Numbered from the stretch's first letter, positions 3,654-28,564 are shown. The stretch is DNA of 64,000 nt from Dehalococcoidia bacterium (GCA_963663235.2 CAXXNO010000004.1:416001-480000); one strand, 5' to 3'. Made by a program: numbers and translations. The notes: a model not told the origin generated them from the sequence alone.

Positions 3654-4577
3654 ATGGGTCAACTGGACGGTCGAGTAGTGATCATCACCGGGGCCGGACG
3701 CGGGATCGGCGCATCGCTGGCGCGCGTGATGGCCGGTGAAGGTGCGCGGGTGGTGGTCAACGACCTCGGCGGCGCCGTCGACGGGGCGGGCGCGGACAAG
3801 GCTCCGGCCTCCGAGGTGGTGGACCAGATCCGCGCCGACGGCGGCACGGCGGTGGCGAACTTCGGCAGCGTGGCGGACAACCATGACGCCGAACAGATGG
3901 TCACCCAGGCGCTCAAGGAATACGGGCGGCTGGACGTATTGATCAACGTGGCGGGCATCCTGCGCGACCGCATGATCTTCAACATGACGGAAGAGGAGTG
4001 GGACGCGGTCATCGCCGTGCATCTCAAGGGCACCTACAACACCACCCGCTACGCCGCCATCCACTGGCGGCAGGCGCGGGAGGGACATTACCGTCTGATC
4101 AACTTCTCCTCGGTCTCGGGGCTGCACGGCTCCCCCGGGCAGCCCAACTACGCGGCGGCCAAGATGGGCATCGTGGGCCTGACGTGGTCGTGCGCCAACG
4201 GGCTGGCGCGCTACGGCGTCACCGCCAACGCCATCGCGCCGTCGGCGGCGACGCGCATGCTCCAGGACATCCCCACGGACCGGCAGGGAACGACGATGCA
4301 GAACCCCGCGGACGACCCGCAACGCTCGCCGGACAACATGGCGCCGCCGATCGTCTATCTGGCGAGCACCGCGTCCGACTGGCTCAGCGGGCGGGTCATC
4401 GGTATCCGGGGCTACAAGATCCAACTCTACTCGAACCCGATGATCGAGCGGGAGATGATCTCGCAGGAGCCCTGGTCGGTCGATGAATGCTGCGCGGAGA
4501 TGGAGGGGGCATTCCGATCGGCAGTGGGGGGTGGTCCGGTGTTCGTCTGGGCCGGGCTCGATCCGCAGATCGTCTAG
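3654..4577 (+). CDS. SDR family oxidoreductase (hydroxyacyl-CoA dehydrogenase-like)
   Basis: TGAGRGIG, VVVNDLG, AGILRD and catalytic YAAAK. Confidence 0.9.
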   Translation: MGQLDGRVVIITGAGRGIGASLARVMAGEGARVVVNDLGGAVDGAGADKAPASEVVDQIRADGGTAVANFGSVADNHDAEQMVTQALKEYGRLDVLINVAGILRDRMIFNMTEEEWDAVIAVHLKGTYNTTRYAAIHWRQAREGHYRLINFSSVSGLHGSPGQPNYAAAKMGIVGLTWSCANGLARYGVTANAIAPSAATRMLQDIPTDRQGTTMQNPADDPQRSPDNMAPPIVYLASTASDWLSGRVIGIRGYKIQLYSNPMIEREMISQEPWSVDECCAEMEGAFRSAVGGGPVFVWAGLDPQIV

Positions 4578-4602
4578 GCGCGGGTTTCGGCACGGGGGCG
4601 CC

Positions 4603-7763: not shown

Positions 7764-7769
7764 GGGCGT

Positions 7770-9071
7770 CTATTTGGCCGGGTGCGGCGCCGGCTCCAGG
7801 CCGCGGTAGCGCCCCCGGAACTGTTCGAAGATGGCAGCCGTTCGCTTGGCCACGCCGGTCCAGCCGAACTGGCGCCGCGCGAAGCGGGCGCCTTCGTTGC
7901 TCAGTCGTGCCCGCAGGCTTGGGTAGCGGAGCGGCAGGCTGAGAACGGTGGCGAACTCCGTGGGGCGGCTGGGGTCGGCGTAGAGCGCCTGCACGCCGAA
8001 GTCGATCATCTGGTGCAGGCCGCCGTTCACGGTGATCACGGCCGGTGTCCCGCACGCCATCGCCTCCACGGCGGTCATGCCGAACGGCTCGTAGCGTGAG
8101 GGCAGGGCGAAGACGGCGGCGGCGCGGTAGTGGTCGGTCATCGCCTCGTCGGTGATGTACCCGCGCCAGCGAATCCAGCGGGTGACCTCCAGTTGATCGG
8201 CCAGCGCCTGCCAGCGCTGCACCTTGCGACGGTCCCGCGCAGAGTCGGCCCCCACCGCCAGTTGCAGGCGCGCATCGGGAACCAACGTGCGCAGCACCGG
8301 CAGCGCGCGGATGAGGAAGTCATACCCCTTGTTGGAGGCGGCGCGGCCCACGCAGTACACATCATGGGTGCGGAACCCCAAGCGGCGGCGCGCATCGGTG
8401 ACGCTCTCCGGCAGCGCCGGCGTGTAGCGCGCCTCATCGATGCCGGGAGGCACCAGCGTGACGTGCTCGGCGGGCACGTCGTAGTGGTCGCGGAGGATGT
8501 CGGCTTGGTCGGGCGAGGTGGCGATCAGGTGATCGCAGTGCTGATAGACCAGAAACTCTTTGCGGATCCGTTCATCGAAGCGGTACTGCTGTTCCAGGAC
8601 CGCGGGGTCCTCTTTCATCTCTGTGCGCTTCCACCAGCCCAAGGAGTGAGGCGTATGGATGTGGGGGATGTTCAGCTCCTCGGCGATCCGCTGGCCGGCC
8701 CAGCCGGCGTCCCAGTAGTGCGAGCTGACGACGTCGTAGCGGGTCCGGCTGGTGGCGACGGCCGCGAGGAACCGGGTGATGAAATCGCCCAGGTAGTCGT
8801 GCATGTCTTCTTTGCGCACGAACCCCGGGGCGCCGAAGGGGATGCGCCAGATGCGCAAGCCGTCCGCGATCTCGTCGACGGCCGGCTGGGTCTCGAAGCG
8901 GCGGGTGACGATGTCGACCCGGTAGCCGAGGCGGGCGAAGCGCTTGGCCATCTCCAAGACGAAGACGACCTGGCCCCCGGTGTCCGGCAAGCCCAACTCC
9001 GGCTCCGCGGCCACATACCCGTGCACCGAAAGCATCAGGATGGAGCCGACGGGGGATGGCCCTAGGGTCAT
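7770..9071 (-). CDS. mfpsA: mannosylfructose-phosphate synthase-like GT4 glycosyltransferase
   Basis: HGYVAAEPELGLPDTGGQVVFVLE, TRRFE, SHYWDAG, HTPHSLG, SRYEPFGMTAVEAMACGTP and ALYADP closely follow Agrobacterium MfpsA as recalled. Confidence 0.75.
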   Translation of the reverse strand: MTLGPSPVGSILMLSVHGYVAAEPELGLPDTGGQVVFVLEMAKRFARLGYRVDIVTRRFETQPAVDEIADGLRIWRIPFGAPGFVRKEDMHDYLGDFITRFLAAVATSRTRYDVVSSHYWDAGWAGQRIAEELNIPHIHTPHSLGWWKRTEMKEDPAVLEQQYRFDERIRKEFLVYQHCDHLIATSPDQADILRDHYDVPAEHVTLVPPGIDEARYTPALPESVTDARRRLGFRTHDVYCVGRAASNKGYDFLIRALPVLRTLVPDARLQLAVGADSARDRRKVQRWQALADQLEVTRWIRWRGYITDEAMTDHYRAAAVFALPSRYEPFGMTAVEAMACGTPAVITVNGGLHQMIDFGVQALYADPSRPTEFATVLSLPLRYPSLRARLSNEGARFARRQFGWTGVAKRTAAIFEQFRGRYRGLEPAPHPAK

Positions 9072-15463: not shown

Positions 15464-16297
15464 TCAGCCCTCGCGCTCGAAGACCGCCCGCACGACCGCG
15501 ATGCGGCCCTCCTCGAGGTTGCGGGAGAGGTTCCCGATCGCCTCGCCAAACCCGGGGCCCAGGAGGACGGCCGGGCTGAGCGGCGGCGGGCCCTGGTCGG
15601 CGGCGGTCGCCCGCGCGGCCCGGACCCAGGCGATGGACTGATCGGTCACGTCCTGCCAGACGCGCTCGCGGAGGCCGCTTTGCTCGATGAGCGTGCGCAG
15701 CTCCTGGGCGCCCACCAGGAAGCTGATGGCGGGATCGCGAGCCCAGGGCACGGGAAAGTGGGGCTCCGGCGTTGGGCCGGAGAGGACTTCGTGCAGGATG
15801 AAGCGGCCGCCGGGCTGGAGGACTCGCAGGATTTCCGTGCAGAGGCGTCCCTTGTCCTGGATGTTCATTTGCGCGTGCTGCGTCCAGACGACGTCGTAGG
15901 ACGCATCGGCGAAGGGCGTGGCGAGGGCGTCGGCGCAGCGGATCTCCACCTGGTCGCTCAGGCCGGTGCGCGCCGTGAGGAGCTCGGCCGCTTGGCAGTA
16001 GGCCTCGGTGAGGTCGATGCCGGTGACGCGACAGCCAAACCCGGCGGCCAGCGTGCGGGCGGGTCCGCCGATGCCGCAGCCGATGTCCAGGACCCGCATT
16101 TCCTCCCGCAGACCGGCCAGGGAGGCGAGTGCGAGGGTCGCGTCGTGGCCGCCGATGTGGAAATGGTCGAGCGGCGCGAGGTCCGCCGGCCTGAGCGCAT
16201 CCAGGTCCTTGCCGGCGCGGGCGAGCGCTTCCAGGATCCGTCCCCCCAGATCCGGCCGGCCGTAGTGCTGGTTGACCGCTTCGGCGATGTCGCTGAC
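15464..16297 (-). CDS. class I SAM-dependent methyltransferase (sarcosine/dimethylglycine N-methyltransferase-like); start codon uncertain
   Basis: DHFHIGG, VLDIGCGIGGPAR, GIDLT and LQPGGRF motifs. A strong SD (AAGGAG) sits 6 nt before a GTC codon at 16297. Confidence 0.8.
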   Translation of the reverse strand, partial: VSDIAEAVNQHYGRPDLGGRILEALARAGKDLDALRPADLAPLDHFHIGGHDATLALASLAGLREEMRVLDIGCGIGGPARTLAAGFGCRVTGIDLTEAYCQAAELLTARTGLSDQVEIRCADALATPFADASYDVVWTQHAQMNIQDKGRLCTEILRVLQPGGRFILHEVLSGPTPEPHFPVPWARDPAISFLVGAQELRTLIEQSGLRERVWQDVTDQSIAWVRAARATAADQGPPPLSPAVLLGPGFGEAIGNLSRNLEEGRIAVVRAVFEREG

Positions 16298-16453
16298 GGG
16301 CCGCTCCTTTTTGTGCTGGGTCGGGCCCGGCACCCAGCGATAGCGTAGCGAACCGTCGAAGTAGGGGCCGCGGCGTCGCTGCGTCGCCGCCGTTTGCGAC
16401 GTTCGTCGGAGGAGGAATCCGTCCTTGGTCGCTCCGGAATCCCGAGGCACTGC

Positions 16454-16482
16454 CGTCACAAAGCCCCGCCGCATCGACCATA
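16454..16482 (+). promoter_or_regulatory. candidate ECF sigma promoter of the tasA/sipW operon (CGTCAC-N17-ACCATA)
   Basis: Same -35 hexamer pattern and spacing as three other island sites (25124, 34945 minus, 35186). Confidence 0.4.
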
Positions 16483-16617
16483 CAGGTAGAGGAAGTCTGC
16501 CGATTTTCCGGTCCCAAGTGGGGCCCGGCATCGGTAACGGGGGGAAAGAGGTCCAGAGGGCGTGACGCCATTGGACATCGGAGCGAATCACCACCCCGAT
16601 ACGGACGGGAGGCAGCG

Positions 16618-17160
16618 ATGCTGCGCCTGATTCTCACCCTCGTGGGAGTTATCGGTATTTCGACGGCCTTTGTCGTGACCGACACCCTGGCGGTCTACAC
16701 CGACCAGGAGACGAACAGCGCCAACGCCTTCGACACTGGGAGCGTGGATTTGGCCAACGCCCCGGACAGCGCCATCGTGACTTTCACCAACATGGCGCCC
16801 GGCAACTCGGTGATCCAGCCGCTGACTGTGACCAACAGCGGCTCGCTTGATCTGCGCTACGCCATGACGGCGACGGCGACCAACGCCGACAGCAAGAACC
16901 TCCGCGACCAGTTGCTGCTGACGGTGCGCACGCAGACGGCCAATCCGTGCTCCTCGGAGGACGGGGCGGTGCTCTACGGGCCCGCGGCCCTCTCAGCCGG
17001 CGCTTTCGGCGACGCGACCCAGGGGGCGCAGGCCGGTGACCGGACACTGTTGATCGGCACGAACGAATCATTGTGCTTCAAGGTGGAGTTGCCGGCGGCG
17101 AGCGCCAATTCCTTCCAGAGCGCGGCCGCGACCGTCACGTTCACGTTCGACGCGGAATAG
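16618..17160 (+). CDS. tasA: TasA/CalY (camelysin, M73-like) fibre subunit with SipW-type signal peptide
   Basis: GGAGG RBS; TLA|VYTDQETNSANAFDTGSVDL; NMAPGNSV..LTVTNSGSLDLRY; LCFKVELP; FTFDAE. The TAG is followed in frame by TTNNP-TAA. Confidence 0.8.
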   Translation: MLRLILTLVGVIGISTAFVVTDTLAVYTDQETNSANAFDTGSVDLANAPDSAIVTFTNMAPGNSVIQPLTVTNSGSLDLRYAMTATATNADSKNLRDQLLLTVRTQTANPCSSEDGAVLYGPAALSAGAFGDATQGAQAGDRTLLIGTNESLCFKVELPAASANSFQSAAATVTFTFDAE

Positions 17161-17201
17161 ACGACTAACAACCCGTAACCCCAGGAGCGACGCGGACGCT
17201 G

Positions 17202-18716
17202 ATGACAACCTCAAGGCACAAAAATCGATCGCGCTCTCGGCGGCCACTGCTATTGTTGCTGGCCGTTGTGGGCGCCGTCAGCCTGGCGATCGTTGGGACG
17301 GCGGGCCCGGCGCTGCTGCCGGGCGAAGGCTCCGGCGGCGACGATTTCACGGCGCAAGCCGCCGCCGACGCCGGCGGCGCGCTCAGCGCGCCGGTGAGTC
17401 CCGACGGCGACTGCGACACCGATGCAGCCGAACGCGGCGCAACCCTGCCGGACGAGTGCACTGAAGGCCGGAACGGGGGCGACCACACCGCCGCCGCGGC
17501 CGGCGAGGACGCCACGACCGACGAGTACATCCTCAGCGTCGCCGTGGTGGAGGACGGCGCCACGGACGGGGGCACTCCTGCTGCCTCTGGGACGGGCAAA
17601 CTCCCCGGCGGGCCGGGGGCCATCGAAGACCCGACCGGCGGCATTTTCATCAACTTTGGCGGTATCGAGGTCCGTGGCCGCGATGGCGAGCCGGCCGGTG
17701 GGGCTGACGCTGGGTCCGATCCGCCGGGGCCCAACGGGGCGTTTGGCCCCGGCGGCGGTGACCCGTCCGGTTCCTTTGTGGCGGGGGACGGCGATTCGGC
17801 CGGTCCCGACGCCTCGGACGGAATCTTTGGCTTCCAGCCCGACGACGGGGACGGCTCTGGCGCCGATGATGCGTCGTCCGGCTCAGGCGACTCCGGCGGC
17901 GACTCCGGCGGCGTCTTCGGCGGCGGCACTGGCAGCGGCGGCGGCGGCTCCGACGACGGCTCGGACATCGGCTCGGGCGACAACTCGGGCAGCGGCACCA
18001 GCGACGGCACGGACGACGGCTCGGGCGATGACTCGGGCAGCGGCACGGGCGACGGCACGGGCGATGACTCGCGCAGCGACTCGGGCGATGACTCGGGCAG
18101 CGACTCGGGCGACAGCTCGGGCAGCGGCTCCGACGAAGACTGCGACGACGGTTCCGACGACGACTGCGGCGACGGCACGGGCGACAACTCAGGCAGCGGC
18201 TCCGGCGGTGACTCCAACGATCCCCCGCCCCCGCCTCCGCCCCCACCCCCGCCCCCGCCCCCGCCGAGCGGAGGGGGCCCCGTGGATCTGGTGGCTTCGC
18301 CCGGGAGCGCGGTGGTCAGCTTCTCGAACATGGCCCCCGGCGACTCCGTGATCGCGGTGTTGGTGCTCACCAACAACGACTCCACCGAGCTGCGCTACGC
18401 CATGACGACCTCCGCCACCAACGCGGACGGCAAAAACCTGGCGGGCCAGTTGCTGGTGACGATCCGGCTGAAGACGTCGAATCCTTGCTCTGCGGAGGAC
18501 GGCGCGATTCTCTACGGCTCCGGGCCGTTGAGCGGCGCGGCCTTCGGCGATCCGGCGCAGGGAGCCCAGGCCGGCGACCGTGTCTTGGCGCCCGGCGCGA
18601 GCGAGCAACTGTGCATCAAAGTGGAACTCCCGCTTTCCAGCGGCAACGAGACCCAGAACGCGGCGACCGTGGCCCCCTTCGTTTTTGACGCGGAAGAGAC
18701 CTTCAATAACCCGTAG
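17202..18716 (+). CDS. N-terminally anchored or secreted protein with Gly/Asp/Ser stalk, polyproline hinge and C-terminal TasA-like domain
   Basis: Hydrophobic N-terminus and GSGDDSGS-type repeats. The C-terminal ~155 aa closely match the preceding TasA (NMAPGDSV, LRYAMT, NADGKNL, NPCSAEDGA, FGDPAQGAQAGDR, LCIKVELP, FDAEETFNNP). Confidence 0.75.
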   Translation: MTTSRHKNRSRSRRPLLLLLAVVGAVSLAIVGTAGPALLPGEGSGGDDFTAQAAADAGGALSAPVSPDGDCDTDAAERGATLPDECTEGRNGGDHTAAAAGEDATTDEYILSVAVVEDGATDGGTPAASGTGKLPGGPGAIEDPTGGIFINFGGIEVRGRDGEPAGGADAGSDPPGPNGAFGPGGGDPSGSFVAGDGDSAGPDASDGIFGFQPDDGDGSGADDASSGSGDSGGDSGGVFGGGTGSGGGGSDDGSDIGSGDNSGSGTSDGTDDGSGDDSGSGTGDGTGDDSRSDSGDDSGSDSGDSSGSGSDEDCDDGSDDDCGDGTGDNSGSGSGGDSNDPPPPPPPPPPPPPPPSGGGPVDLVASPGSAVVSFSNMAPGDSVIAVLVLTNNDSTELRYAMTTSATNADGKNLAGQLLVTIRLKTSNPCSAEDGAILYGSGPLSGAAFGDPAQGAQAGDRVLAPGASEQLCIKVELPLSSGNETQNAATVAPFVFDAEETFNNP

Positions 18717-18736
18717 CCGCCCAGCGCGGGGTGTGA

Positions 18737-19984
18737 ATGATGGAAAAATCTATGCCAGCCGCTTCGACCCGCATTCGGAGGATCGCACTCCGAACGGCGC
18801 TGCTTGTGGTCGTGGCGACGCTCGGTCTGGTGGTCACGGGCGCGCTGCCCACGCTGCTGGGCTATGACTCGTTTGTGGTCACGGGAAGCAGCATGGAGCC
18901 CACGGTACGCAAGGGCTCCGTCGTGATCGCGCGGCGGGTCGCCCCCCACACGATCGCGGCCGGCGACATCATCACGTTCCGCCGGACGCAGGATCCCGGC
19001 GTCGCGGTCACGCACCGCGTCATCGACGTGCGCGAAGTGGACGGTGTCCCGGTCTTCGAGACCAAAGGAGACGCCAACGAGACCGCGGATCCGGAGGCCG
19101 TGCAGGCCACCGCGTTGATCTCCAAGATGCAGTATTCCGTCCCCTATGTGGGCTACGTATTGATGTTCGGACGGTCGACGATGGGCAAGGCGGTGCTGAT
19201 TGTGGTTCCCCTGCTCGCTCTGGCCCTGAGCTTCCTCCCGGCCCGGCGCTTGCGCCGGAGGGACGGGGGGGTGGAGGCGACGGCGGCCTCGCCTGAGCCG
19301 AGCGAAGCGCCGGCGCGGGTCGCGCCAGAGGAGCCGCCGCCTGCGCGTCGGTTCCCGCCGGGCCCCGCGGCGGCCCCGGATCCGATGGCGGGCCCGGCCG
19401 TGATGGTGGCCCCGGCCGTGATGGCGGCCCAGCCTCCGACGGCCGTCCCGGCCCGTCCAGCGGCCCCGGCGCGTGCGGCGGCCCCGGCCGTGATGGCGGC
19501 CCCGCCTCCGATAGTGACTCTGCCTCCGACGGCGGCCCCGGTCCGTGCGGCGGCCTCGCTCCCTATGGTGGCCCCGCCTCCGAGGGCGGCCCCGGCCCGT
19601 GCCGCGGCCTCGCTCCCTATGGTGGCCCTGCCTCCGATGGCGGCCCCGGCCGTGAAGGCGGCCCCGCCTCCGATAGTGACTCCGCCTCCGACGGCGGCCC
19701 CGGCCCGTGCGGCGGCCTCGCTCCCTGTGGTGGCCCCGCCTCCGACGGCGGCCCCGGCCCGTGCGGGGATCCTGCTTCCTGTGGCGCGCCCGACCCCTAC
19801 GGTCCTCCGGGCCCCCGCGGCGGTCCCGGTCTCCGCGCCGCCCAGCATGGCGCTCGCCTCCGATCGCGGCGCAGCGACTTCGCAACGGCAGCCGGACCGG
19901 TCCCATAACGCCGCCGCCGCGGCGCGGGCGCGGATCCTGGCCAGGCTGACCGCTCAGGTGGCGCATAGAGGGGCGACGGCTTAA
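18737..19984 (+). CDS. sipW: signal peptidase I, SipW/S26B type, with Pro/Ala-rich repeat tail
   Basis: VVTGSSMEP (Ser), GDIITF, VTHRV (His), TKGDAN..D and VPYVGY motifs. Confidence 0.9.
   Translation: MMEKSMPAASTRIRRIALRTALLVVVATLGLVVTGALPTLLGYDSFVVTGSSMEPTVRKGSVVIARRVAPHTIAAGDIITFRRTQDPGVAVTHRVIDVREVDGVPVFETKGDANETADPEAVQATALISKMQYSVPYVGYVLMFGRSTMGKAVLIVVPLLALALSFLPARRLRRRDGGVEATAASPEPSEAPARVAPEEPPPARRFPPGPAAAPDPMAGPAVMVAPAVMAAQPPTAVPARPAAPARAAAPAVMAAPPPIVTLPPTAAPVRAAASLPMVAPPPRAAPARAAASLPMVALPPMAAPAVKAAPPPIVTPPPTAAPARAAASLPVVAPPPTAAPARAGILLPVARPTPTVLRAPAAVPVSAPPSMALASDRGAATSQRQPDRSHNAAAAARARILARLTAQVAHRGATA
19430..19770 (+). repeat. ~54-bp (18-aa) imperfect tandem repeats in the SipW tail
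   Basis: PPTAAPVRAAASLPMVAP / PPRAAPARAAASLPMVAL / PPMAAPAVKAAPPPIVTP / PPTAAPARAAASLPVVAP. Confidence 0.8.
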
Positions 19985-19988
19985 CGCG

Positions 19989-22880
19989 ATGACTACACGC
20001 GCGCTCAGCTGGAGAATTGGTGTCGCGCTCTTGAGCCTCGTGGCGCTGGGCGCCTCGATCGTCGTGACGGGCGCCAGCGGCGCGTTCTTCACGGATGGCG
20101 AGCCGAACGCCGCCAACACCTTCACCACCGACACGCTGCAGCCCGTCACGGGCCTGACTGCGGGCGCCAACGGGCAGACCGCCATCGACCTGAGCTGGAC
20201 GGCGAGCGCATCGGCCGACGCCGCCGGGTACAACGTCTACCGCAGCGCGACTTCGGGCAGCGGCTACGCGCTGGTGACCACCCTGGCCGGCGGAGCGACC
20301 ACGAGCTACGGCGACAGCGGCCTCACCGCCGCGACGACGTACTACTACGTCCTGGAGACCACCTTCCAGAACTGGGTCAGCGTCTACTCGGCCGAGGCCT
20401 CGGCGACGACCGGCGCGCTCCCGGCGCCCACGGTCGGCAGCGTCAGCCCGACCGGCGGCACCACGGCGGGCGGCACGGCGGTCACGATCACGGGCACGAA
20501 CTTCGTGGCCGGGGCCACGGTGAGCTTCGGCGGCGCGGCCGCCACCAACGTCAGCGTGGCCAGCGCCACCAGCATCACCGCCGACACGCCCGCCGACACG
20601 CCCGCCCACGCGGCCGGGACCGTGGACGTGGTGGTCACCAACCCCGACCTCCAGAGCGGCACCCTGGCGAGTGGCTACACCTACGCGGCGGCGCCCACGG
20701 TCGCCAGCGTCAGTCCGGCCAGCGGCCCCGCGGCGGGCGGCACGGCGGTCACGATCACGGGCACGAACTTCGTGGCCGGGGCCACGGTGAGCTTCGGCGG
20801 CGCGGCCGCCACCAACGTCAGCGTGGCCAGCGCCACCAGCATCACCGCCGACACGCCCGCCCACGCGGCCGGGCCCGTGGACGTGGTGGTCACCAACCCC
20901 GACCTCCAGAGCGGCACCCTGGCGAGTGGCTACACCTACCAGGAGCCGCCGCCGTCTAGGTTCCAGAGCGTCGCGACGGCGATCACCAGCAGCAACGCAC
21001 CGAGTCTCGCCATCGGCCTGCCCGCCGGCACGGTCGCCGGCAACTTCCTTGTGGCGGCCCTCTCAATCGACGGAGGTGTGACGATCACGCCGCCCGCGGG
21101 CTGGACCGAGATCCTTCAGACCAGCGACGGCGATCGTACGAACTTGGGCGTCTGGTACAGGGTCGCGACCGGCTCGGAGCCGTCCTCGTACACCTTCTCC
21201 TGGGGCGCGAACGAAAAGGCGACGGGCGCGATCCTGCGCTACAGCGGCGTAGACAACGCCAACCCGATCGACGGTTTCGGAGCCGCCTTCGGCAACAGCA
21301 TCAACCCGACCGCGCCGAGCGTGACCACGACGGTCGCCGACACGCTGGTGCTGCGCGTCGCCGCGATGGAGGGGGAAAAGCTGCCCACGCCGTCGAGCGG
21401 CGTGTATCCCGCGGGCACGGACGGCCGCTACGCCCATCAAACCAGCGGCTCCGGCTCGAGCACTGGCGCGGGCGCGGATCTGGCGCAGGCGTCGGCCGGA
21501 GCCACGGGGACGGCGGCGTTCACACTCAGCGGCGCGAAGGCGTGGGTGACGGCCACGATCGCGATCAGGCCGGGCTCCGGCGCGCCCCTCCCGGCCCCCA
21601 CGGTGAGCAGCGTCAGCCCGGCCACCGGCTCCACGGCGGGCGGCACGGCGGTCACGATCACGGGCGCGGACTTCGTGGCCGGGGCCACGGTGAGCTTCGG
21701 CGGCGTGGCCGCCACCAACGTCAGCGTGGCCAGCGCCACCAGCATCACCGCCGACACGCCCGCCCGCGCGGCCGGGGCCGTGGACGTGGTCGTCATCAAC
21801 CCCGACCTCCAGAGCGGCACCCTGGTGAGTGGCTACACCTACGCGGCGGCGCCCACGGTCGGCAGCGTCAGCCCGGCCAGCGGCCCGCCCGCGGGCGGCA
21901 CGGCGGTCACGATCACGGGCGCGAACTTCGTGGCTGGGGCCACGGTGACCTTCGGCGGCGTAGCCGCCACCAACGTCAGCGTGGCCAGCGCCACCAGCAT
22001 CACCGCCGACACGCCCGCCCACGCGGTCGGGGCCGTGGACGTGGTGGTCACCAACCCCGACCTCCAGAGCGGCACCCTGGCGAGTGGCTACGCCTACCAG
22101 GGGCCGCCCGTCAGCGTGGCGGCCAGCCCGGGCAGCGGCACGGCCGTCTCGCTGTCCTGGTCCGCCTCGACGAACATGTCCGTCGAGGGCTATAACATCC
22201 TCCGCAGCACCACCTCCGGCAGTGGATACACGACGGTGACCAGCGTCGCCGGCCGGTTGACGATCACCTATGCGGACACGCCGCCGGACGCCGAGACTAG
22301 TTACTACTACGTAGTGGAGCCGTACTACAGCGCCGGCACCGACCCCGTGTCCAACGAGGCCGCGCGCGCGGTCCTGGTGTCCACGGCGGACGGCTACATC
22401 AAGCTGGACAAGCCCGACGAGGTCCGCGGCGGCGAAAACGCCTTCTATGTCAGGAGCGAACCAAGCAAGGACAAGCGCTCCTTCGTGCAGTTCGACCTGA
22501 GCGGCATCCCTGCCTCGGCGACGGTCGATACCGCCACCCTGCGCCTGTTCATGAACGACGCGCCGGCTGCAGCGAGAATCTACGAGGCGCAGCGGGCCAG
22601 CGCGGCGTGGGCGGAGGGCACCCTCAACTGGAACACCCAGCCGGCGGTGTCAGGGGTGGCGGTGACGGCCGCAATCGGGACCATCAATAACACCTGGAAC
22701 GAATGGACCATCACGGTGGACCTACAGGCCTTCGTGGACGGGTCGGTCAGCAACAACGGCTGGCGGTTCAACGATCAGACGGCAGGGGCCAGTCCAACCC
22801 AGGAGGGCGAGCATCGGACCCGCGAGCACGGGACCGCGGCGGAGCGCCCTCACTTGGTGGTGTTCTATGCGACGCCCTAA
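19989..22880 (+). CDS. SipW-substrate multidomain adhesin: FN3 - 2x IPT/TIG - beta-rich domain - 2x IPT/TIG - FN3 - DNRLRE-like domain
   Basis: ASGA|FFTDGEPNAANTFTT SipW-type N-terminus; LSWTAS..GYNVYR FN3; four PTV.SVSP..G..AGGTAVTITG.NF modules; RSFVQFDLSGIP..ATLRL..W.EGTLNWN...RPHLVV. Confidence 0.8.
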   Translation: MTTRALSWRIGVALLSLVALGASIVVTGASGAFFTDGEPNAANTFTTDTLQPVTGLTAGANGQTAIDLSWTASASADAAGYNVYRSATSGSGYALVTTLAGGATTSYGDSGLTAATTYYYVLETTFQNWVSVYSAEASATTGALPAPTVGSVSPTGGTTAGGTAVTITGTNFVAGATVSFGGAAATNVSVASATSITADTPADTPAHAAGTVDVVVTNPDLQSGTLASGYTYAAAPTVASVSPASGPAAGGTAVTITGTNFVAGATVSFGGAAATNVSVASATSITADTPAHAAGPVDVVVTNPDLQSGTLASGYTYQEPPPSRFQSVATAITSSNAPSLAIGLPAGTVAGNFLVAALSIDGGVTITPPAGWTEILQTSDGDRTNLGVWYRVATGSEPSSYTFSWGANEKATGAILRYSGVDNANPIDGFGAAFGNSINPTAPSVTTTVADTLVLRVAAMEGEKLPTPSSGVYPAGTDGRYAHQTSGSGSSTGAGADLAQASAGATGTAAFTLSGAKAWVTATIAIRPGSGAPLPAPTVSSVSPATGSTAGGTAVTITGADFVAGATVSFGGVAATNVSVASATSITADTPARAAGAVDVVVINPDLQSGTLVSGYTYAAAPTVGSVSPASGPPAGGTAVTITGANFVAGATVTFGGVAATNVSVASATSITADTPAHAVGAVDVVVTNPDLQSGTLASGYAYQGPPVSVAASPGSGTAVSLSWSASTNMSVEGYNILRSTTSGSGYTTVTSVAGRLTITYADTPPDAETSYYYVVEPYYSAGTDPVSNEAARAVLVSTADGYIKLDKPDEVRGGENAFYVRSEPSKDKRSFVQFDLSGIPASATVDTATLRLFMNDAPAAARIYEAQRASAAWAEGTLNWNTQPAVSGVAVTAAIGTINNTWNEWTITVDLQAFVDGSVSNNGWRFNDQTAGASPTQEGEHRTREHGTAAERPHLVVFYATP
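20425..22100 (+). repeat. four near-identical ~250-bp IPT/TIG-encoding DNA repeats in two tandem pairs
   Basis: Recurring ggcggcacggcggtcacgatcacggg...aaccccgacctccagagcggcaccctgg; the first copy has an extra 12-bp ADTP duplication. Confidence 0.9.
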
Positions 22881-22897
22881 GCCTGTAGGGTGCCAAA

Positions 22898-23012
22898 ACC
22901 TGTGGGACCACAAAATGCGGATCGTCACGCGACCATCCGTTCGTAGCGATGATGGAGCCCCCCCGAGCATCGGAATCGCGACCACCTGTGGGACCACGAA
23001 ACTCGGATCGTC
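22898..23012 (+). repeat. 29-bp intergenic direct repeat, 2 copies 86 bp apart
   Basis: acctgtgggaccacaaaatgcggatcgtc (22898-22926) vs acctgtgggaccacgaaactcggatcgtc (22984-23012); 26/29 identical. Confidence 0.8.
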
Positions 23013-23092
23013 GACGATTGCCCGCTGATCTGAAGGCCAGGAGCCATCGGATGACGTTGCTTTCCGTCCGTTCGATGAGCTGGAGGTGGACC

Positions 23093-24620
23093 GTGCAGGA
23101 AAAGAAACGCAAGCGGAATGCAGCCTCGGTGGCAGGGCGGCGGGACTTGATTCGGGTGGGCTCGGCCACTGTTGCCCTCGCGTTGCTTGCGGCTGTTGGG
23201 CTGGCGCTCTTCGCCTTTAGCGCTAGCCAGGCCTACGCGACGGGCGGCCAGTGCGAAGACCTGACGAATAACGGCAACATCATCGCCAAAGTGACCTCGC
23301 CGACGGGCAGCGGCAGCCCGGACATCGAGGTCATCCGCGACGGCGTCTTTCCCCCGGTCGGCAGCGGCGACACGTTGGCTCAGTACGACACCTTCGACGG
23401 CGCCAACACGGCGACGGAAGATTGGATCGGCTACTCGCTCCAGTTCAGCTTCACCTGGGAGGAAGTCATCTTCCAGGAAGGGATACATTTCTGGGACGGC
23501 GGCTGGTTCGAATCGCTTACCGTCCAGGTCCGCCAGAGTGGGGACTGGAACACCGTAACGGGCCTCTTCATCTCGCCGTCCTACCCCTTCGTCAACAACG
23601 GCGTGTCGTACGAGACCTACACCCTGACATTCGACCCCATTCCCGGCGACGGCATCCGCATCTTCGGCGCGCCCGGTGGCAACGCGGCCTTCATCTCAGT
23701 GGGCGAGTTGAGAGTCTTCGGCGACTGCAACCCGCCGCCGCCGCCCCCCCGCCGCCGCCTCCGGTCTGTGACAACAACTTGACCGGTGGTGCACAGATCG
23801 TCGCCCGTGTGACCGCAGCGACGGGCGGCGGCTCCCCGAACATCGAGGTCATCCGCGACGGCATCTTCCCGCCGGTTGGCAGCGGCAGCTCGGCGACGCA
23901 GTACGACACGTTCGATGGCGTCAACGCGGCCTTCGAGGATTGGATCGGCTACACGTTCCCTGCCGCGCACCTCTGGGAAGCGGTCCTCTTCCAGGAAGGG
24001 CGGCACTTCTGGGACGATGGCTGGTTCGACAGCCTGACCGTGCAGGTCCGCCAGAGCGGGACCTGGGTGCCGGTGACTGGCCTGTCCATCGTCCCGGCCT
24101 ACCCCGGTTTCGATAACGGCCTCTCTTACGAGACCTTCGCGCTGTCGTTCGTTCCGATCAGCGGCGACGGCATCCGCATCTTCGGCGCCCCCGGCGGGTT
24201 TGCCGACTTCATCTCCGTCGGCGAGCTGAGCGTCTTCGGAGACTGCCAGCCGCCGCCGCCCCCCCCCCCCCCCCCCCCCCGGCCTCCTGCGAAGACGGGA
24301 AGATGGCCACCATCACGTTGCAGCTGACCGCCGCGCCGGCGGGGCCCGGCCCGTACACGGTCGTGGTCTTCACCGACAAGAACAACCCGCTCGGCACGTT
24401 CACCGTGTCCGTTGGTGACACCTTCACGGTCGGAACCCCCGGCCAGAAGTTCGAAAAGTCGAGCATCGAACTGACGTTCACCGGGCCGGCGAGCACCAGC
24501 GGGATGAAGGTGCACGTCTCGTGCTCCGACGACCCCGTCGCCGGTGTGACCACCCACTCGCAAGATGGCTTCACGACGCTGATCACGACCTTCACGACGG
24601 TGCCGAAGAAGAAGAAGTAG
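23093..24620 (+). CDS. secreted protein with two discoidin/CBM-like beta-sandwich repeats and polyproline linkers; split by two -1 frameshifts in C-runs
   Basis: GGAGG RBS before GTG at 23093; RRDLI plus hydrophobic signal peptide; duplicated IEVIRDG.FPPVGSG...QYDTFDG.N...EDWIGY...FQEG.HFWD.GWF...FISVGEL. Frames join at C7 23744-23750 and C22 24259-24280. Confidence 0.7.
24259..24280 (+). repeat. C22 homopolymer in a polyproline-coding tract
   Basis: Direct count; it coincides with the frame switch. Confidence 0.9.
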
Positions 24621-24700
24621 GGCAATATTGAGGGGATCCGTCTCGCCACGCGGGCAACCGTTGCGGTGAGACGGATTCGGCAGCGGTCCGGGCGCCGCCC

Positions 24701-24964
24701 CTACGGCCTGCCGGGCCGGGCTTGGGTAGTGCGATCCAGCCCGGCCTCGACCTTGGCGATGATGCGCTCGGCGTCGATCGGGGGGGCGCTCTCCCAGAAC
24801 CGCACCAGCGCCTCGACGGCTTCGGCCAGGGCCTCCAGCTCATCGAGCACGGTGTCTTCCGCGATCGCCACGTCCTCGGGCGCGGCGGTCACCCCGCCGG
24901 CCCCTCTGGCGGCCAGGCGCCGATCCAAACGGTCGGCCAGTTGCGCGTCTCGGTCCTCTGGCAC
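24701..24964 (-). CDS. small soluble protein homologous to the N-terminal repeats of the anti-sigma-like protein at 35320
   Basis: GGGAG RBS. LAEAVEALVRFWESAPPIDAERIIAKVEAGL aligns with LAATVLVLSAFWEQAPAIDQSAVRARVDGHL. Confidence 0.6.
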   Translation of the reverse strand: MPEDRDAQLADRLDRRLAARGAGGVTAAPEDVAIAEDTVLDELEALAEAVEALVRFWESAPPIDAERIIAKVEAGLDRTTQARPGRP

Positions 24965-25123
24965 TACAAGCTCCCGTCCCGGCGTCGACCATATGAGGGT
25001 AGGGAAGGGGCGTCGCTCCAGGCAAGGCGCACTCGGCCCAGGAGGAAAGGGTGCCCTCCTTCTGGGCGCGACCGGGGTGAAGCGGTCCAGCCCGCTCCCG
25101 GGGGCGGAAAAGACATCTCACGG

Positions 25124-25152
25124 CGTCACGTACCCCTAGCTCAGGAGTCAGT
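25124..25152 (+). promoter_or_regulatory. candidate ECF promoter of the flp/tad operon (CGTCAC-N17-GTCAGT)
   Basis: Shared motif and spacing; ~70 bp upstream of the flp start. Confidence 0.45.
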
Positions 25153-25220
25153 TAAGCATAAGGGACTCCGGCTCCGGCAGCCGAGCACGCCGGGCCGGCA
25201 AGCGAAATAGAGGAGAAACC

Positions 25221-25418
25221 ATGCGAAACGTGATGCTCAAGACTGCCAGCAAGCTGAACGATGCGCGCCGACGGCTGCACCGTGACGAAGAGGGCGCGGG
25301 CGTCCTGGAGTACGCCCTGGTGGCCGGGGTGGTTTCCGCCGCTCTGATCGCCGCACTCGCCACCTTCGCGGGGGACGTCGTGGACGCCGCGGGGGTCGCG
25401 GTCAACGCGCTGATCTAG
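25221..25418 (+). CDS. flp: Flp family type IVb/IVc pilin
   Basis: AGAGGAG RBS; DEEG|AGVLEYAL Flp motif followed by a hydrophobic helix. Confidence 0.9.
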   Translation: MRNVMLKTASKLNDARRRLHRDEEGAGVLEYALVAGVVSAALIAALATFAGDVVDAAGVAVNALI

Positions 25419-25458
25419 CCGCCGCATCCATCCCAGCGAGGGAGCAGTCACGCGCTGA

Positions 25459-25487
25459 GGGAGAGCCGGGCCAACTCCGGCTCTCCT
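25459..25487 (+). terminator. GC-rich hairpin after flp (partial terminator or mRNA-stabilising stem)
   Basis: ggagagccgg-gccaact-ccggctctcc 10-bp stem; no U-tract. Confidence 0.55.
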
Positions 25488-25517
25488 GGGCAGCGCGCGC
25501 TGAGGGCCCAACGTCCG

Positions 25518-25860
25518 ATGTTCCGGAAACTCTGGAAGCCGCAGGAAGGCGTCGCCGCCCTCGAGATGGCGCTGATCATGCCGGTGATCGCCATGATCAT
25601 CATCGACACGGGGCTGTTCTTCTTCGACTACGTCAGCGCCGCCAACGCCACCCGTGAGGGGGCGCGCTGCGGCGCCGTAGGGGGCGCGGACACGGTCATC
25701 GAGGACCGGGTGGCGGAAACCTACGGCTTTGCCGATCCCACGCTCGTCGTCACCGACCGCACGGGCGGGCAGATCGGTGACGACATCATCGTGACGACGA
25801 CGTTCGACCACGATGCGGATCGAGATGGACACGATTAATCCGGACCAATGCGGCACTTGA
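25518..25860 (+). pseudogene. tadE: TadE-like pseudopilin with apparent internal deletion or frameshift near 25810
   Basis: EG|VAALEMALIMP and ATREGAR motifs; the typical C-terminal MRIE appears in another frame (25813-25860). Confidence 0.7.
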
Positions 25861-25954
25861 CCCGGGCCAATGCGGCACTGATGCCGGCGGTGACGACGAT
25901 GACGACTAGGGCAACTCGCCAGGCCGCGCTGCGTAGCTCGCGACGCCGTCCACG

Positions 25955-27205
25955 ATGAGCAAGACGATTCGACGGCTCCGGGGCGAGACGGGCACAGTGG
26001 CCATCCTGTTTGCGGTGGGCATGACGAGCTTCATGGCGTTCCTGGCCATCGTGGTGGAGGTCGGGTTGATCCACGCGGAGAAGACGAACTTGCAGGCCGC
26101 CGCGGACGCCGCGGCCCTGGCCGGGGTCCAGTCGCTGCCCTGGAACCCGGCGCAGGCGGTGCTGGACGCGCAGGAGTGGGCGGCCAAGAACGTGGACGGC
26201 TTGACGTTCAACGACGCCGTGGTCGTCGACGGACAGCGCATCGAGGTGACGGTGCGGCGCAACGCCATCGGCGTCTTCAACGGCGCGCTGAGCCTGGGCA
26301 AGCCGGAGGTGGAGGCCACCGCGTCGGCGCTGGCCCTGAACACGGGCGTTCCCTACGCCATCTTCGGCATCGGCGATAAGTGCAGCGGCGGAACCCGCCC
26401 CGTCAAGATCGAGGGCTCGGGCGCCCTGGTCACCGGCACGGTCCACAGCAACGGCCGCATCAAGGTCAGCGGCGGATCGCACGAGGTCCAGGGCATAGTC
26501 ACGTACGTCTGCGACCCCCCGGGCATCAACGGGAGCGGCCACGATTTCCAAGGCGGGCTCGCGGAGATCGAGCCGAGGCCTACTCCCTTGGAGCCCCCCG
26601 ATCTGGCCCCATATTTCGCCTACCTCGCGAGCCCGGCGACCTGCACCTTCGAGCTCACGGGCTCGGACGAGCTCAAGAATTATCCGGAGTTTTGGGTGGA
26701 CGGCGATCCCGACTCCAACCAACTCCTCCCGGGCGTGTACTGCTCCGACGACGACATCGAGCTCAAGCAGTCAAACGTCTCGGGGACGGTCACCTTCATC
26801 GCCGACCAGAAGGTCAAGATCAGCGGCCACGACATCATCCTGACGGCCTTCGTCGGGGGCGTGCTCGTCTTTTCGGCCGACTACAAGGTCGAGTGGACCG
26901 GGAACAATGGGCAGTGGACCGGCGACATGCTGGCCGCCGACGGCGAGATCAAGGTGTCCGGCAGCGACCACAGCTGGACCGGTGATATGTATTCCGCCGA
27001 CGGCGAGATCAAGATTTCCGGCAGCGACGCCACCTGGACCGGCAATCTCTTCGCCCCAAACGACAAGGTGGAGGTGACGGGCGCGCGCGCGACCGCGACC
27101 GGGGTGCTGGTCGGCGATGAAGTGAAGCTCAACGGGAGCGACATCACGATCAACTACAACCCGGCCCACGAGGGCACCACAATCCTGTATCGCCTGGTCG
27201 CGTAA
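25955..27205 (+). CDS. tadG: TadG-like pilus-associated adhesin with C-terminal beta-solenoid repeats
   Basis: ETG|TVAILFA, LQAAADAAALAG and ATASA; ~20-aa repeats such as GEIKVSGSDHSWTGDMYSAD. Confidence 0.8.
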   Translation: MSKTIRRLRGETGTVAILFAVGMTSFMAFLAIVVEVGLIHAEKTNLQAAADAAALAGVQSLPWNPAQAVLDAQEWAAKNVDGLTFNDAVVVDGQRIEVTVRRNAIGVFNGALSLGKPEVEATASALALNTGVPYAIFGIGDKCSGGTRPVKIEGSGALVTGTVHSNGRIKVSGGSHEVQGIVTYVCDPPGINGSGHDFQGGLAEIEPRPTPLEPPDLAPYFAYLASPATCTFELTGSDELKNYPEFWVDGDPDSNQLLPGVYCSDDDIELKQSNVSGTVTFIADQKVKISGHDIILTAFVGGVLVFSADYKVEWTGNNGQWTGDMLAADGEIKVSGSDHSWTGDMYSADGEIKISGSDATWTGNLFAPNDKVEVTGARATATGVLVGDEVKLNGSDITINYNPAHEGTTILYRLVA

Positions 27206-27232
27206 CCAGCGCACTGAAGGAGCAGGGACATC

Positions 27233-28564
27233 ATGCTGCAAGGAGCAACTCGCCCGATGTCAAGCGGCGGCTCGATCCGCGGCTCGATCCGCGGCAAGTG
27301 GCTGCGGCTGCTGCTGGCACTGGGGCTGGGCGTGGTGGCCTTCGCGCTGGTGGTCGCCGCGCTGCGCAGCCAGGAAGGTTCGGGCGGCGTCGTAACCGCG
27401 CCGGCGGTGACCAGCATCTCCATCGTCACCGCCGCGCGTGACGTCCCGGCGGGCCAGCGGATCACGGCGGAGATGCTGGAGTTGACCGCCATGCCTCCGG
27501 ATCTGGCCCTTGCGGATGCGTTCAACCGCTCGGAGCTGGTGACCGGGCGCTTCGCTCGGATTCCTATCTACCGGGGTGAACAGTTGGTTGAGGCCAAGCT
27601 GGCGTCGGTTGGCGACGGCGCCAGCGGCCTCAGCTACACCGTGCCCGACGGGTATCGCGCCATGGCGGTGGAAGTGGACAAGGTTGTGGGTGCGGGCGGC
27701 CTGCTGCGGCCCGGCGATCGGGTGGACGTGGTGGCCGTATTGATCGTCGGCGACGACGGGAACCGCGCCTTGACGATCGCCCAGAACGTGGAAGTGTTGG
27801 CGGTGGAGCAGAAGTTGATCAACGTGGTCCCGGCCGCTGAGGGCGCTACCGCAGGCAGCGACGGCACGCTGGTGGACCAGCCCGATGCGCAACCCAAGGG
27901 ATCGGTCGCGACGCTGGCGCTGACGCCGGAGCAGGCGCAGCAGGTCCTCCTGGCCGAAGTGGAGGGCAGCATCCGCCTGTCCGTGCGGGCGCCCGGCGAC
28001 TCGGCCGAGGTGGCGCTGCCGAACGCGTCGTTCGTGGAGAGCGCGAACGCCGGCGCCGGTCCGAACGGCTCGGAGACGGCCGTTCCGCTCAGTCAGGTCG
28101 TCCCCGAAGGGATGCGGACGATGGCCGTCGGCGTCGACAGAGTGATCGCCGCGGGCGGTCTGCTGCGGCCCGGCGACCGGGTGGACGTGCTGGCTCTGCT
28201 GGAGCTGCAGCAGACGGACGCCTCCGGCACGCAGATCGTCGACGAGGCGCGCGTGGTCACCATCGCCCAGTACGTACAGGTGCTGGCCGTCGAGCAACGC
28301 TTGCTGGAGGACCCCACGGTCTCCGCGTCCGACGCGATCGTCGATCAGTCCGCCACGTTGCCCTCCGCGACGGCGGTCACCTTGGCAGTGACCCCGCTGC
28401 AAGCGCAGCAGATCCTGCTGGCGGAGGCGCGCGGCGTGATCCGGCTCTCCCTGCGGCCCACGGATGAGACAGAGATCCTCGATCTGAACTACAGGGCGCT
28501 CCTGGCCGTCACGGATCCGCGGTTCCAGGGTCTGGTTGAAGAGGCGTTCCGCGAGTTGGGCTAG
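27233..28564 (+). CDS. cpaB: CpaB/RcpC pilus assembly protein with duplicated RcpC domain
   Basis: TM helix, SAF domain (VTAARDVPAGQRIT), and two copies of VP.G.R.MAV.VD.V..AGGLLRPGDRVDV.A. Confidence 0.88.
   Translation: MLQGATRPMSSGGSIRGSIRGKWLRLLLALGLGVVAFALVVAALRSQEGSGGVVTAPAVTSISIVTAARDVPAGQRITAEMLELTAMPPDLALADAFNRSELVTGRFARIPIYRGEQLVEAKLASVGDGASGLSYTVPDGYRAMAVEVDKVVGAGGLLRPGDRVDVVAVLIVGDDGNRALTIAQNVEVLAVEQKLINVVPAAEGATAGSDGTLVDQPDAQPKGSVATLALTPEQAQQVLLAEVEGSIRLSVRAPGDSAEVALPNASFVESANAGAGPNGSETAVPLSQVVPEGMRTMAVGVDRVIAAGGLLRPGDRVDVLALLELQQTDASGTQIVDEARVVTIAQYVQVLAVEQRLLEDPTVSASDAIVDQSATLPSATAVTLAVTPLQAQQILLAEARGVIRLSLRPTDETEILDLNYRALLAVTDPRFQGLVEEAFRELG

Follow-up and report, generated by a model that had tools for sequence, protein, structure and literature searches.

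Chaperone-usher pili of the type 1 and P kinds have an adhesin at the tip, then a shaft, and a terminator, which stops growth and holds the fibre at its base, and they grow tip first from that base; the FimH or PapG tip is acceptor-only, the terminator donates a strand, and a periplasmic chaperone and an outer-membrane usher are needed. Donor strands also join the fibres encoded by the tapA-sipW-tasA operon of Bacillus subtilis. According to the published accounts consulted, the groove of the TasA monomer is self-complemented, and its own N-terminal strand is freed only once a foreign strand fills the groove (PMC9674648); this displacement mechanism is established for TapA and TasA (PMC9674648, PMC10151520), and TapA, whose own fold is complete, gives the first strand and hence has a place only at the filament start (PMC10151520, PMC9674648). 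For bacterial fibres of the TasA type, TapA accounts for the start only, not for termination or retention on the cell. Here we describe a cluster of four genes at 16618-22880 of a 64,000-nucleotide stretch of DNA (the window) from a Dehalococcoidia bacterium (GCA_963663235.2, CAXXNO010000004.1:416001-480000). The genes encode a TasA-like shaft subunit (P1), a stalked TasA body that lacks a donor strand (P2), a SipW-type signal peptidase (P3) and a donor-only protein (P4). We consider it probable (about 0.6) that the cluster encodes a donor-strand fibre of the TasA superfamily with dedicated end subunits, in which P4 would start the chain and P2 would end it.

Relation to described donor-strand systems

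The initial annotation of this DNA had not recognized such an architecture as described. That claim does not stand, since the scheme has already been proposed for haloarchaea (PMC11821415, PMC12337348), putative anchors are reported for bacterial AbpX loci, and the cluster is a bacterial, TasA-family variant of it. For a tethered TasA-family (PF12389) subunit without donor strand, we found no description in the literature searched. In the Tafi system of Haloarcula hispanica, as far as the available account describes it, the tip protein TafC donates a strand and directs a laminin-G domain outward, TafE is an adapter, TafA forms the shaft, TafF closes the chain and anchors it in the membrane, and TafD is the peptidase; the terminator role of TafF rests on AlphaFold (PMC11821415). 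Parallels with the cluster in that account are a linear donor-strand fibre, a tip that gives only its N-terminal strand and bears a lectin-like payload, a dedicated peptidase in the locus and a last subunit, pilin-like and of jelly-roll fold, which has a membrane segment and closes the chain ('finalized chains'). In Natrinema, TafF1/2 are described as one membrane helix and then a jelly-roll, which is the order of P2 (PMC12337348). Tafi differs in being archaeal, in its Tat-secreted major pilins and in its pilin family (DUF1102/TafE). The H. hispanica TafF has three C-terminal helices, and the Tafi accounts consulted mention neither a long acidic stalk nor polyproline, both of which P2 has. 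P2 is also, unlike TafF, a recent paralogue of its own shaft gene, in a cluster with Sec/SipW-type signals. Judged from these descriptions (PMC11821415, PMC12337348), P2 resembles TafF in its role and in the order of its domains: like TafF, P2 has a pilin-like domain without a donor strand, which is predicted to accept the strand of the shaft subunit.

With the B. subtilis operon the cluster shares a TasA-family shaft (PF12389, 5OF2 fold), a SipW-type peptidase and a starter that mimics the donor strand, whereas no acceptor-only subunit is known there. Mature P1 is about 155 aa long against about 234 aa for TasA, and the passenger of TapA is a small Ig-like domain, against FN3, TIG and CBM96 domains in P4. 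For AbpB and TapA, one account suggests that they donate the first strand and that their distal domains serve as adhesins 'similar to FimH' (PMC9245690). AbpX loci, as presented in a preprint that reports AbpX homologues in Chloroflexota, combine a peptidase, minor subunits, predicted tips and, in bacteria, putative anchors that join the fibre by strand complementation in AlphaFold 3 models (bioRxiv 10.64898/2026.01.04.697558). As described there, these anchors are attached to the wall through SLH or LPXTG elements, unlike the N-terminal hydrophobic segment and stalk of P2, and the AbpX peptidase has ten transmembrane helices, against two hydrophobic segments in P3. The WxL pilus ElrA-E of Enterococcus is presented as a pilus of a monoderm that is joined by donor strands and has a distal adhesin and a terminating base subunit, both predicted, its adhesins joining a constant attachment module to a variable payload much as the P4 class does (bioRxiv 10.64898/2026.10.17.759780). 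In the same account it has an unrelated WxL fold, a membrane chaperone and sortase-dependent wall anchoring; the C-termini of P1, P2 and P4, read from the translations, carry no LPXTG-type signal, and the two sortase genes of the genome lie on a different contig. Relative to chaperone-usher pili, the polarity of the parts is inverted, and neither chaperone nor usher is encoded in the cluster. What the present analysis adds to these systems is that the strand + FN3 starter module recurs, and that there is a further class of putative stopper, which stands apart from P2 on the tree and has the same two residue changes.

Gene content of the cluster

The four genes lie head to tail on the plus strand, with intergenic gaps of 41, 20 and 4 nt (Table 1). 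Their host, a soil-type Chloroflexota bacterium with an assembly of 2.75 Mb in 14 contigs and about 70% GC, has a single sipW and two TasA bodies in its entire genome, and the closest TasA relatives of the cluster come from metagenome-assembled genomes of Chloroflexota/Dehalococcoidia. From the DNA alone, the initial annotation had assigned a SipW-type strand and a TasA body to P1, a similar body without the strand to P2, behind a hydrophobic N-terminus, a stalk of some 300 aa and polyproline, a SipW strand without a TasA body to P4, and a sipW gene to the place between them. Family, profile and fold comparisons bear out this list of parts, with the refinement that the stalk measures about 306 aa and is followed by 15 prolines.

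P1 is a member of the TasA/camelysin family by family model, by fold and by its SipW-type signal and donor strand. It matches PF12389 (Peptidase_M73/camelysin) over residues 15-92 at 41.9 bits (cut-off 22.5). In a Foldseek search, its AlphaFold2 (AF2) model (predicted local distance difference test (pLDDT) 87.3, predicted template modelling score (pTM) 0.76, with residues 18-41 at the N-terminus of low confidence) found TasA 5OF2/5OF1 at ranks 1-3 (E 1.2e-5, template modelling score 0.51), and 8AUR (the TasA fibre) and 7UEG (an archaeal bundling pilus) were also listed. A profile of 54 family sequences likewise retrieved 8aur_A, a chain of the TasA fibre (2.3e-8), and 5of1, the monomer (3.4e-8), and aligned the N-terminal segment of P1 with TasA residues 31-81 of 8AUR. 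The hydrophobic segment of P1 ends in ...TLA and continues as VYTDQETNSANAFDTG; judging by the alignment with TasA, cleavage is expected after Ala25, and residues 26-38 should correspond to the TasA donor strand 28-38 (PMC9674648).

P4 consists of a SipW-type signal (residues 1-32), a donor strand (33-47), an FN3 domain, two TIG domains, a 220-aa domain, two further TIG domains, an FN3-like stretch and a CBM96/DNRLRE domain. Pfam and NCBIfam recognize fn3 (52-123), four TIG/CoaZ repeats and CBM96/DNRLRE (796-958), and neither these databases nor the body profile finds a TasA body. Its N-terminus, which runs ...GA and then FFTDGEPNAANTFTT, is identical to that of P1 at 14 of 40 positions (E 0.002). 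Among the 25,687 six-frame open reading frames of at least 60 aa in the whole genome, the profile of the SipW-type N-terminus matches P1 (7e-17) and P4 (0.011), the next best value being 8.9; the two proteins share this N-terminus by more than chance. P4 has the features of a TapA-like initiator, namely an N-terminus that mimics the donor strand of the shaft and no acceptor body. No homology to the Ig-like domain of TapA was found in Pfam and NCBIfam, where the matches are limited to fn3, TIG, CBM96/DNRLRE and CoaZ, and P4 may work like TapA without being a member of its family. It is also a putative adhesin. The middle domain (318-540) has no Pfam match at E ≤ 1; its atlas matches were to unnamed clusters only (scores 0.90-0.91) and were treated as uninformative.

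P3 matches TIGR02228 at 105.8 bits (cut-off 51.85, model positions 9-150 of 158) and is the sole such gene in the genome. It scores 99.8 bits against the Bacillus SipW equivalog NF046067, below the cut-off of 190, and is the same kind of enzyme as Bacillus SipW, not an equivalog. The motifs SSMEP, THRV and GDAN, which we take to be catalytic in this type of peptidase, are readable in the translation. Hydrophobic segments at 13-43 and 146-172 are followed by a Pro/Ala-rich repetitive tail of 240 aa (19259-19984) that has no family match in Pfam at E ≤ 1.

Residues 359-498 of P2 are 61% identical to residues 41-180 of P1 (86/140, E 6e-57), and the alignment starts directly after the donor-strand segment of P1. 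P2 has no Pfam match at E ≤ 0.01 and no match to the profile of the SipW-type N-terminus, and its stalk (G84 D57 S41, net charge -62) has none in Pfam at E ≤ 1. In the AF2 model of the full-length protein a helix spans residues 14-31, pLDDT is below 50 across most of 32-336, and the body is confident. P2 is a real gene, because its frame (1,515 nt) is open with the GC content at third codon positions (GC3) highest in that frame along the entire ORF, two independent assemblies encode the same architecture (P0121, 99% identity; P0122, partial), stalk indels of 24 and 84 nt in another population (X10, see below) preserve the frame, and at least half of the sampled words of 16600-19600 occur in 12 sequencing runs from six coded studies, with no RNA run among those listed. 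The proline run is 7 residues long in P0121 and 9 in P0122.

Table 1. Features of the cluster in the window and of the corresponding locus L115 (positions in the window or, for L115, in that locus).
Feature	Position	Strand	Description or basis
P1, TasA-like shaft subunit, 180 aa	16618..17160	+	signal 1-25, donor strand ~26-40, jelly-roll body 41-180
P2, TasA body without donor strand on a stalk, 504 aa	17202..18716	+	proposed terminator, possible anchor
P2 residues 12-40, sole hydrophobic segment	17235..17321	+	Kyte-Doolittle peak 2.58; preceded by 6 Arg/Lys
P2 residues 37-340, acidic Gly/Asp/Ser-rich stalk	17310..18221	+	predicted disordered, four Cys; composition, charge, AF2
P2 residues 341-355, 15 consecutive prolines	18222..18266	+	mixed CCN codons
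P2 residues 359-504, TasA body without donor strand	18276..18713	+	C-terminal strand ..TVAPFVFDAEETFNNP
P3, SipW-type (archaeal/ER-type) signal peptidase I, 415 aa	18737..19984	+	TIGR02228
P4, donor-only protein, 963 aa	19989..22880	+	Pfam, NCBIfam, N-terminal profile
P4 residues 33-123, 'donor strand + FN3' attachment module	20085..20357	+	kept in relatives and in strains lacking the remainder of P4
L115 tasA	2964-3557		
L115 sipW	3865-4698		
L115 585-aa protein			hydrophobic N-terminus, NHL/YncE-like beta-propeller, ~70-aa Pro/Thr linker, body without donor strand
L115 donor-only protein	6470-8248		FN3 + DUF7483

Predicted strand exchange and fibre polarity

Because of the strand-exchange rule of TasA and TapA, a donor-only protein such as P4 could only start a fibre, and a groove-only protein such as P2 could only end it, at the opposite end. 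This arrangement was modelled as a three-chain prediction of P4 33-150, P1 26-180 and P2 343-504, with P1 as the scored partner. The interaction prediction score from aligned errors (ipSAE) was 0.75, 0.78 and 0.72 in three runs; it fell to 0.00 and 0.00 when P1 was replaced and to 0.42 when P2 was replaced. The mark set in the calibration of the tool, which was made on pairs, is reached by 116 of 157 solved complexes and by 2 of 215 mismatched pairs. At least 97% of the contacts are common to the three runs, and the partner pLDDT is at least 91. In the model, P1 29-40 runs antiparallel along P2 487-497, the C-terminal strand of P2, and P4 33-50 lies on P1 166-180. Both joints are in one register, with P4 45/46 at P1 170 as P1 38/39 is at P2 488. 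Of the three dockings proposed for modelling in the initial annotation, that of the P4 strand on P1 and that of P1 on the C-terminal domain of P2 are predicted in this three-chain job (ipSAE 0.75). The modelled polarity of initiator, shaft and terminator, with the donor-only protein at one fibre end and the acceptor-only protein at the other as that annotation had it, is supported by the published TasA mechanism, by this model, by a second lineage with the same gene set and by the substitutions in bodies that lack the donor strand (see below).

In the fibre that we propose, SipW (P3) would cut the special signal peptides of P1 and P4, as their common motif suggests. The freed N-terminal strand of P4 would then fill the groove of the first P1 and push out the strand of that subunit, which would pass to the next P1 and so onward, as modelled here. 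P2, having a groove and no strand, would take the last free P1 strand and pass none on, and the fibre would be terminated. If the general signal peptidase spares the hydrophobic segment of P2, termination would also tether the fibre to the membrane, by way of the acidic disordered stalk of about 300 aa and the polyproline rod; in this tethered case growth would be tip first, and the FN3/TIG/CBM96 payload of P4 would be distal. In Clostridium perfringens, BsaA oligomers are described as membrane-held, and assembly is modelled at the signal-anchored newest subunit, with the SipW cut made afterwards (PMC11580942). By analogy with that scheme, a subunit that SipW is unable to cut would be a permanent anchor.

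Recurrence of the parts in relatives

A scan of species-representative genomes yielded 78 loci from Chloroflexota and Actinomycetota, which were annotated together with the window and locus L004 (80 sources) by profiles of the TasA body, the N-terminus and SipW. SipW stands beside a TasA body in 74 of the 80 sources, and donor-only proteins adjoin sipW in 13 of the 78 other genome loci. The latter count is what is left of 15 flags after two were dropped: L012, which is dubious because it overlies sipW on the other strand, and L074, a TasA with a frameshift. The payloads of these proteins are CBM96 (L014), DUF7483 (L016, L023, L031), Laminin_G_3 (L041, L056) or, at seven loci, nothing recognized. 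Since the payloads vary in this way and the strand + FN3 module of P4 is 49% identical to that of L016 (E 9e-22) and 32% to that of L115, P4 belongs to a recurrent class in which a constant attachment module carries a variable payload. The operon has a patchy distribution: it was found in none of 24 genomes of the same family and, among 16 genomes of the other families in the class, in one.

When metagenomes were scanned with P2, 30 loci came up, each matching by the body alone, and one of them, L115, encodes a form without donor strand. Here the body is preceded by a beta-propeller and a Pro/Thr linker, and the locus also holds tasA, sipW and a donor-only protein (Table 1); this lineage has the same four-part gene set as the window. 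Orthologues of the propeller protein, P0123 and P0124, are 68% and 65% identical to it, and P0123 is named 'YncE family protein [Chloroflexi bacterium]' at NCBI. A word-indexed search of proteins of 277-882 aa found P0121 and P0122 as the only long forms of the P2 body among 1,498 candidates; this search missed the L115 class and is not exhaustive.

Fourteen other 'body-only' flags were rejected: 12 of the proteins have a signal and a weaker donor-like segment, L041 lies in a frameshifted assembly and L074 is a frameshifted TasA. An open frame of 495 aa in G213 proved to be a high-GC artefact around a normal TasA.

Variant TasA proteins of other kinds were seen among the relatives. At L107 (6266-8161) a TasA-like protein with signal and donor strand contains a seven-bladed DUF5122 beta-propeller (E 1.7e-97) midway in its body, between profile positions 47 and 52. 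P0125 (951 aa) is a canonical TasA, with signal, donor strand and body, followed by C-terminal TIG-like, Laminin_G_3 and F5/8-type-C domains, and could be a shaft-type subunit bearing a lectin payload. In L042, L061 and L072 (Acidimicrobiales) the SipW matches lie in open frames of 1,000-1,370 aa, and the N-terminal motif of a second TasA-like paralogue there is of another kind (..SANFAENE.. / ..GANFADDE..); the former may be fused peptidases and the latter a separate class of subunit.

Substitutions in bodies without a donor strand

In a tree of 44 bodies (IQ-TREE, quick mode, trait column excluded), P2 and P0121 fall in a supported set of 13 rows together with P1, and the propeller forms fall inside the other clade, of 31 rows, near the shaft protein of L115 itself. 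Forcing all five rows without donor strand into one clade cost 36.3 log-likelihood units (dlnL) and was rejected by the approximately unbiased (AU) test (p-AU 0.0185). We also compared 230 distinct donor-bearing bodies with four sequences of the lineages that lack the strand. At the T of the C-terminal 'FTF', 215 of the 230 donor-bearing bodies have T, 9 have A, two each have S and R, one each has E and N, and none has V, I or F; in the forms without donor strand the residues are V, F, V and I. At the Q of 'AEQ', 227/227 donor-bearing bodies have Q, and the others show E, D, Q and D. The 'FTF' T column corresponds to P2 residue 494, which contacts P1 residue 32 at the lowest expected error in the three-chain model. 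By this tree and comparison, the bodies without donor strand carry lineage-independent substitutions in the strand that would pair with the incoming donor strand. Over the whole body, P2 departs from 8 of the 45 columns conserved at 85% or more, among them a G and a T present in every one of the 53 homologs compared, and P1 departs from 3 of the 45, its missing tail excluded.

It is possible, and we offer this tentatively, that TasA-family terminators arose at least twice in Chloroflexota, each time by duplication of the shaft gene, loss of the donor strand and the SipW motif, and insertion of a spacer or module between signal and body. Both lines would have changed the same two, elsewhere nearly invariant, residues (T to V/I/F and Q to E/D) as the signature of a terminal joint that does not exchange, and P2, its signal left uncut through destruction of the SipW site, would represent a pilin that became a membrane anchor.

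Variation between populations

Contigs from four of the sequencing runs (X2, X7, X8 and X10) were compared with the window over the region. X2 differs from it at three places only, all G>C and all within the P4 repeat region. The stop codon of P1 is a TAG at 17158-17160, six codons early, and the in-frame codons beyond it spell TTNNP and then a TAA stop (17158-17178). Relatives have Gln at this site and then TTNNP, and P0001-P0003 share the conserved end ...AEQTTNNP. Position 17158 is T (TAG) in the window and X2 and C (CAG, Gln) in X7, X8 and X10, which restores this end; the TAG of P1 is a strain-specific nonsense change common to the window and X2. The tail of SipW has deletions of 252 and 342 nt and a duplication of 54 nt in other populations, and in X7 an extra G at 19264 (GGGG in X10) would shift its frame. 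One TIG repeat of P4 (267 nt) is absent from X10.

Evidence against the proposed fibre and alternative explanations

Several results weigh against a fibre closed by dedicated end subunits. The form without donor strand is rare: it is limited to one of the 30 metagenome loci, a stalked body of this kind occurs in 0 of the 78 other genome loci, and a search of 401 Chloroflexota genomes that began with a strict first look showed none among the 20 loci inspected; all 16 bodies in these loci outside the window genome (G000) carry donor strands. In the modelling, the P4-P1 pair with P2 replaced reached only 0.42, with partner pLDDT down to 70, the job had three chains against a calibration on pairs, the predictor may be recalling the TasA fibre 8AUR from the PDB, and docking of P1 on P2 is expected from likeness, the two being close paralogues. 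The rows grouped for the AU test were chosen after the quick tree had been viewed, and L130, a donor-bearing body of a later set, has L at the 'FTF' T column. P2 could also complement itself in cis, given that its full-length AF2 model has a short, low-confidence strand at 50-54. This strand may be an artefact of MAFFT aligning the donor strands of relatives onto that segment, and a vestigial donor strand in P2 (37-51 by MAFFT, 50-54 by AF2) was rejected as too weak, since the N-terminal profile misses it.

The strain variation has a bearing here too. P1 of the window strain lacks the conserved C-terminal QTxNNP, and residue 492 of P2, Thr in the family and Ser in runs X7, X8 and X10, has become Pro in the window; because of these two changes the window copy of the system may be impaired. 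X7 and X8 carry a deletion of 2,560 nt (20340 to 22901) that removes P4 beyond the FN3 module, the end of the gene included. Since this deletion spares the module, the strand and FN3 make up the core of P4 that is conserved, to which the payload is an optional addition.

The membrane tether is a further weak point. The hydrophobic segment of P2 is followed by ..GTA-GP.., and those of the propeller forms by ..ALA-AP.. and ..AIA-AP.., all of which resemble ordinary signal-peptidase sites, and LepB-type signal peptidases are present in the genome. Residues 12-40 are either a signal-anchor or a cleavable Sec signal. An unlikely reading, the best placed of those that compete with ours, keeps the polarity and reverses the topology or frees the fibre: P2 would be cleaved and act as a secreted cap with an acidic module (a propeller in the other lineage) at the far end, and P4 would be cell-proximal, bound through CBM96/TIG to wall or exopolysaccharide, or released fibres would cross-link substrates at both ends. 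The AXA-like sites after the hydrophobic segments of P2, L115 and P0124 and the general signal peptidases of the genome suit this reading, as does the propeller of the L115 class, which resembles a functional module more than a spacer. A strongly basic N-flank and the AF2 helix at 14-31 fit a signal-anchor equally well, P2 lacks the SipW motif common to both operon partners, and a disordered acidic stretch of about 300 aa with a polyproline rod is more like a wall-spanning stalk, by analogy with staphylococcal Ser-Asp repeats, than a binding module. The P4 payload, moreover, is dispensable in two populations, which would be odd for the sole anchor to the cell. From the literature, accounts that describe TapA as an anchoring or assembly protein (PMC9674648, PMC9245690), for which a cell-side role was originally proposed, and the report of TafF analogues without a transmembrane region in non-halophilic archaea (PMC11821415) speak for P4 at the cell and a cleaved P2.

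We give little credence to a role of P2 as a regulator on the membrane side, a chaperone or inhibitor that would hold the donor strand of newly exported P1 and so limit or time polymerization. Such a role has been proposed for CapP/CalY of B. cereus, with concentration-dependent chaperone or arrest behaviour suggested for CapP in the account available (bioRxiv 10.1101/2024.02.27.582368). A strandless groove could, on the model, sequester a donor strand, and P2 would be at the membrane if uncleaved. The TasA monomer, as described, hides its strand until the groove is filled (PMC9674648), so a free acceptor would meet mostly fibre ends, which amounts to termination, and the changes toward hydrophobic residues in the pairing strand suggest a tighter joint, not a transient one. 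Least probable of all is that P2 is a functionless, decaying tasA duplicate fused to low-complexity sequence in an operon that is eroding in the window strain: its departures from conserved columns, the premature TAG of P1, the two frameshifts of the next gene downstream and the rarity of the form fit this, whereas the open frame with coding-type GC3 throughout, its retention with frame-preserving indels in P0121, P0122 and populations of several studies, and a second lineage that built the same kind of protein with the same two columns changed do not.

If the cluster does encode a TasA fibre with dedicated ends, a natural, minimal four-gene set of starter, shaft and stopper would open termination to direct tests in vitro, with a stopper that is a close paralogue of the shaft subunit and differs from it in a few defined residues. 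The two-column signature could serve to find terminators across the TasA superfamily, and the modular order of donor strand, FN3 and payload suggests a route to the display of proteins at a fibre end.

Genomic context

A scan of 16000-25300 for promoters and terminators gave no signal (no promoter-like and four terminator-like sites, against 0.5 and 3.7 expected). A Tad/Flp pilus locus with genes for an Flp pilin, TadE, a TadG-like protein with DUF7305 and CpaB/RcpC lies on the same strand at 25221-28564, from 2.3 kb downstream of the cluster. A C. perfringens preprint, in the part available, ties type IV pilus proteins to secretion of one protein of the bsa operon (PMC11580942).

Between the two loci, 22949-24620 encodes one secreted protein that is apparently split over three frames. 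Two domains of about 160 aa, 68% identical to each other and each closing with ..FGDC and polyproline, precede a DUF7467-like piece; the repeated domain has no Pfam match at E ≤ 1. The frame changes are located in C-rich tracts, at about 23737-23760 and in a run of about 23 C at 24258-24281, and are due either to assembly error or to slipped-strand variation. A version shorter by 2 nt at 23744/23746, found in three contigs of X7 and one of X2, would mend the first frame junction.

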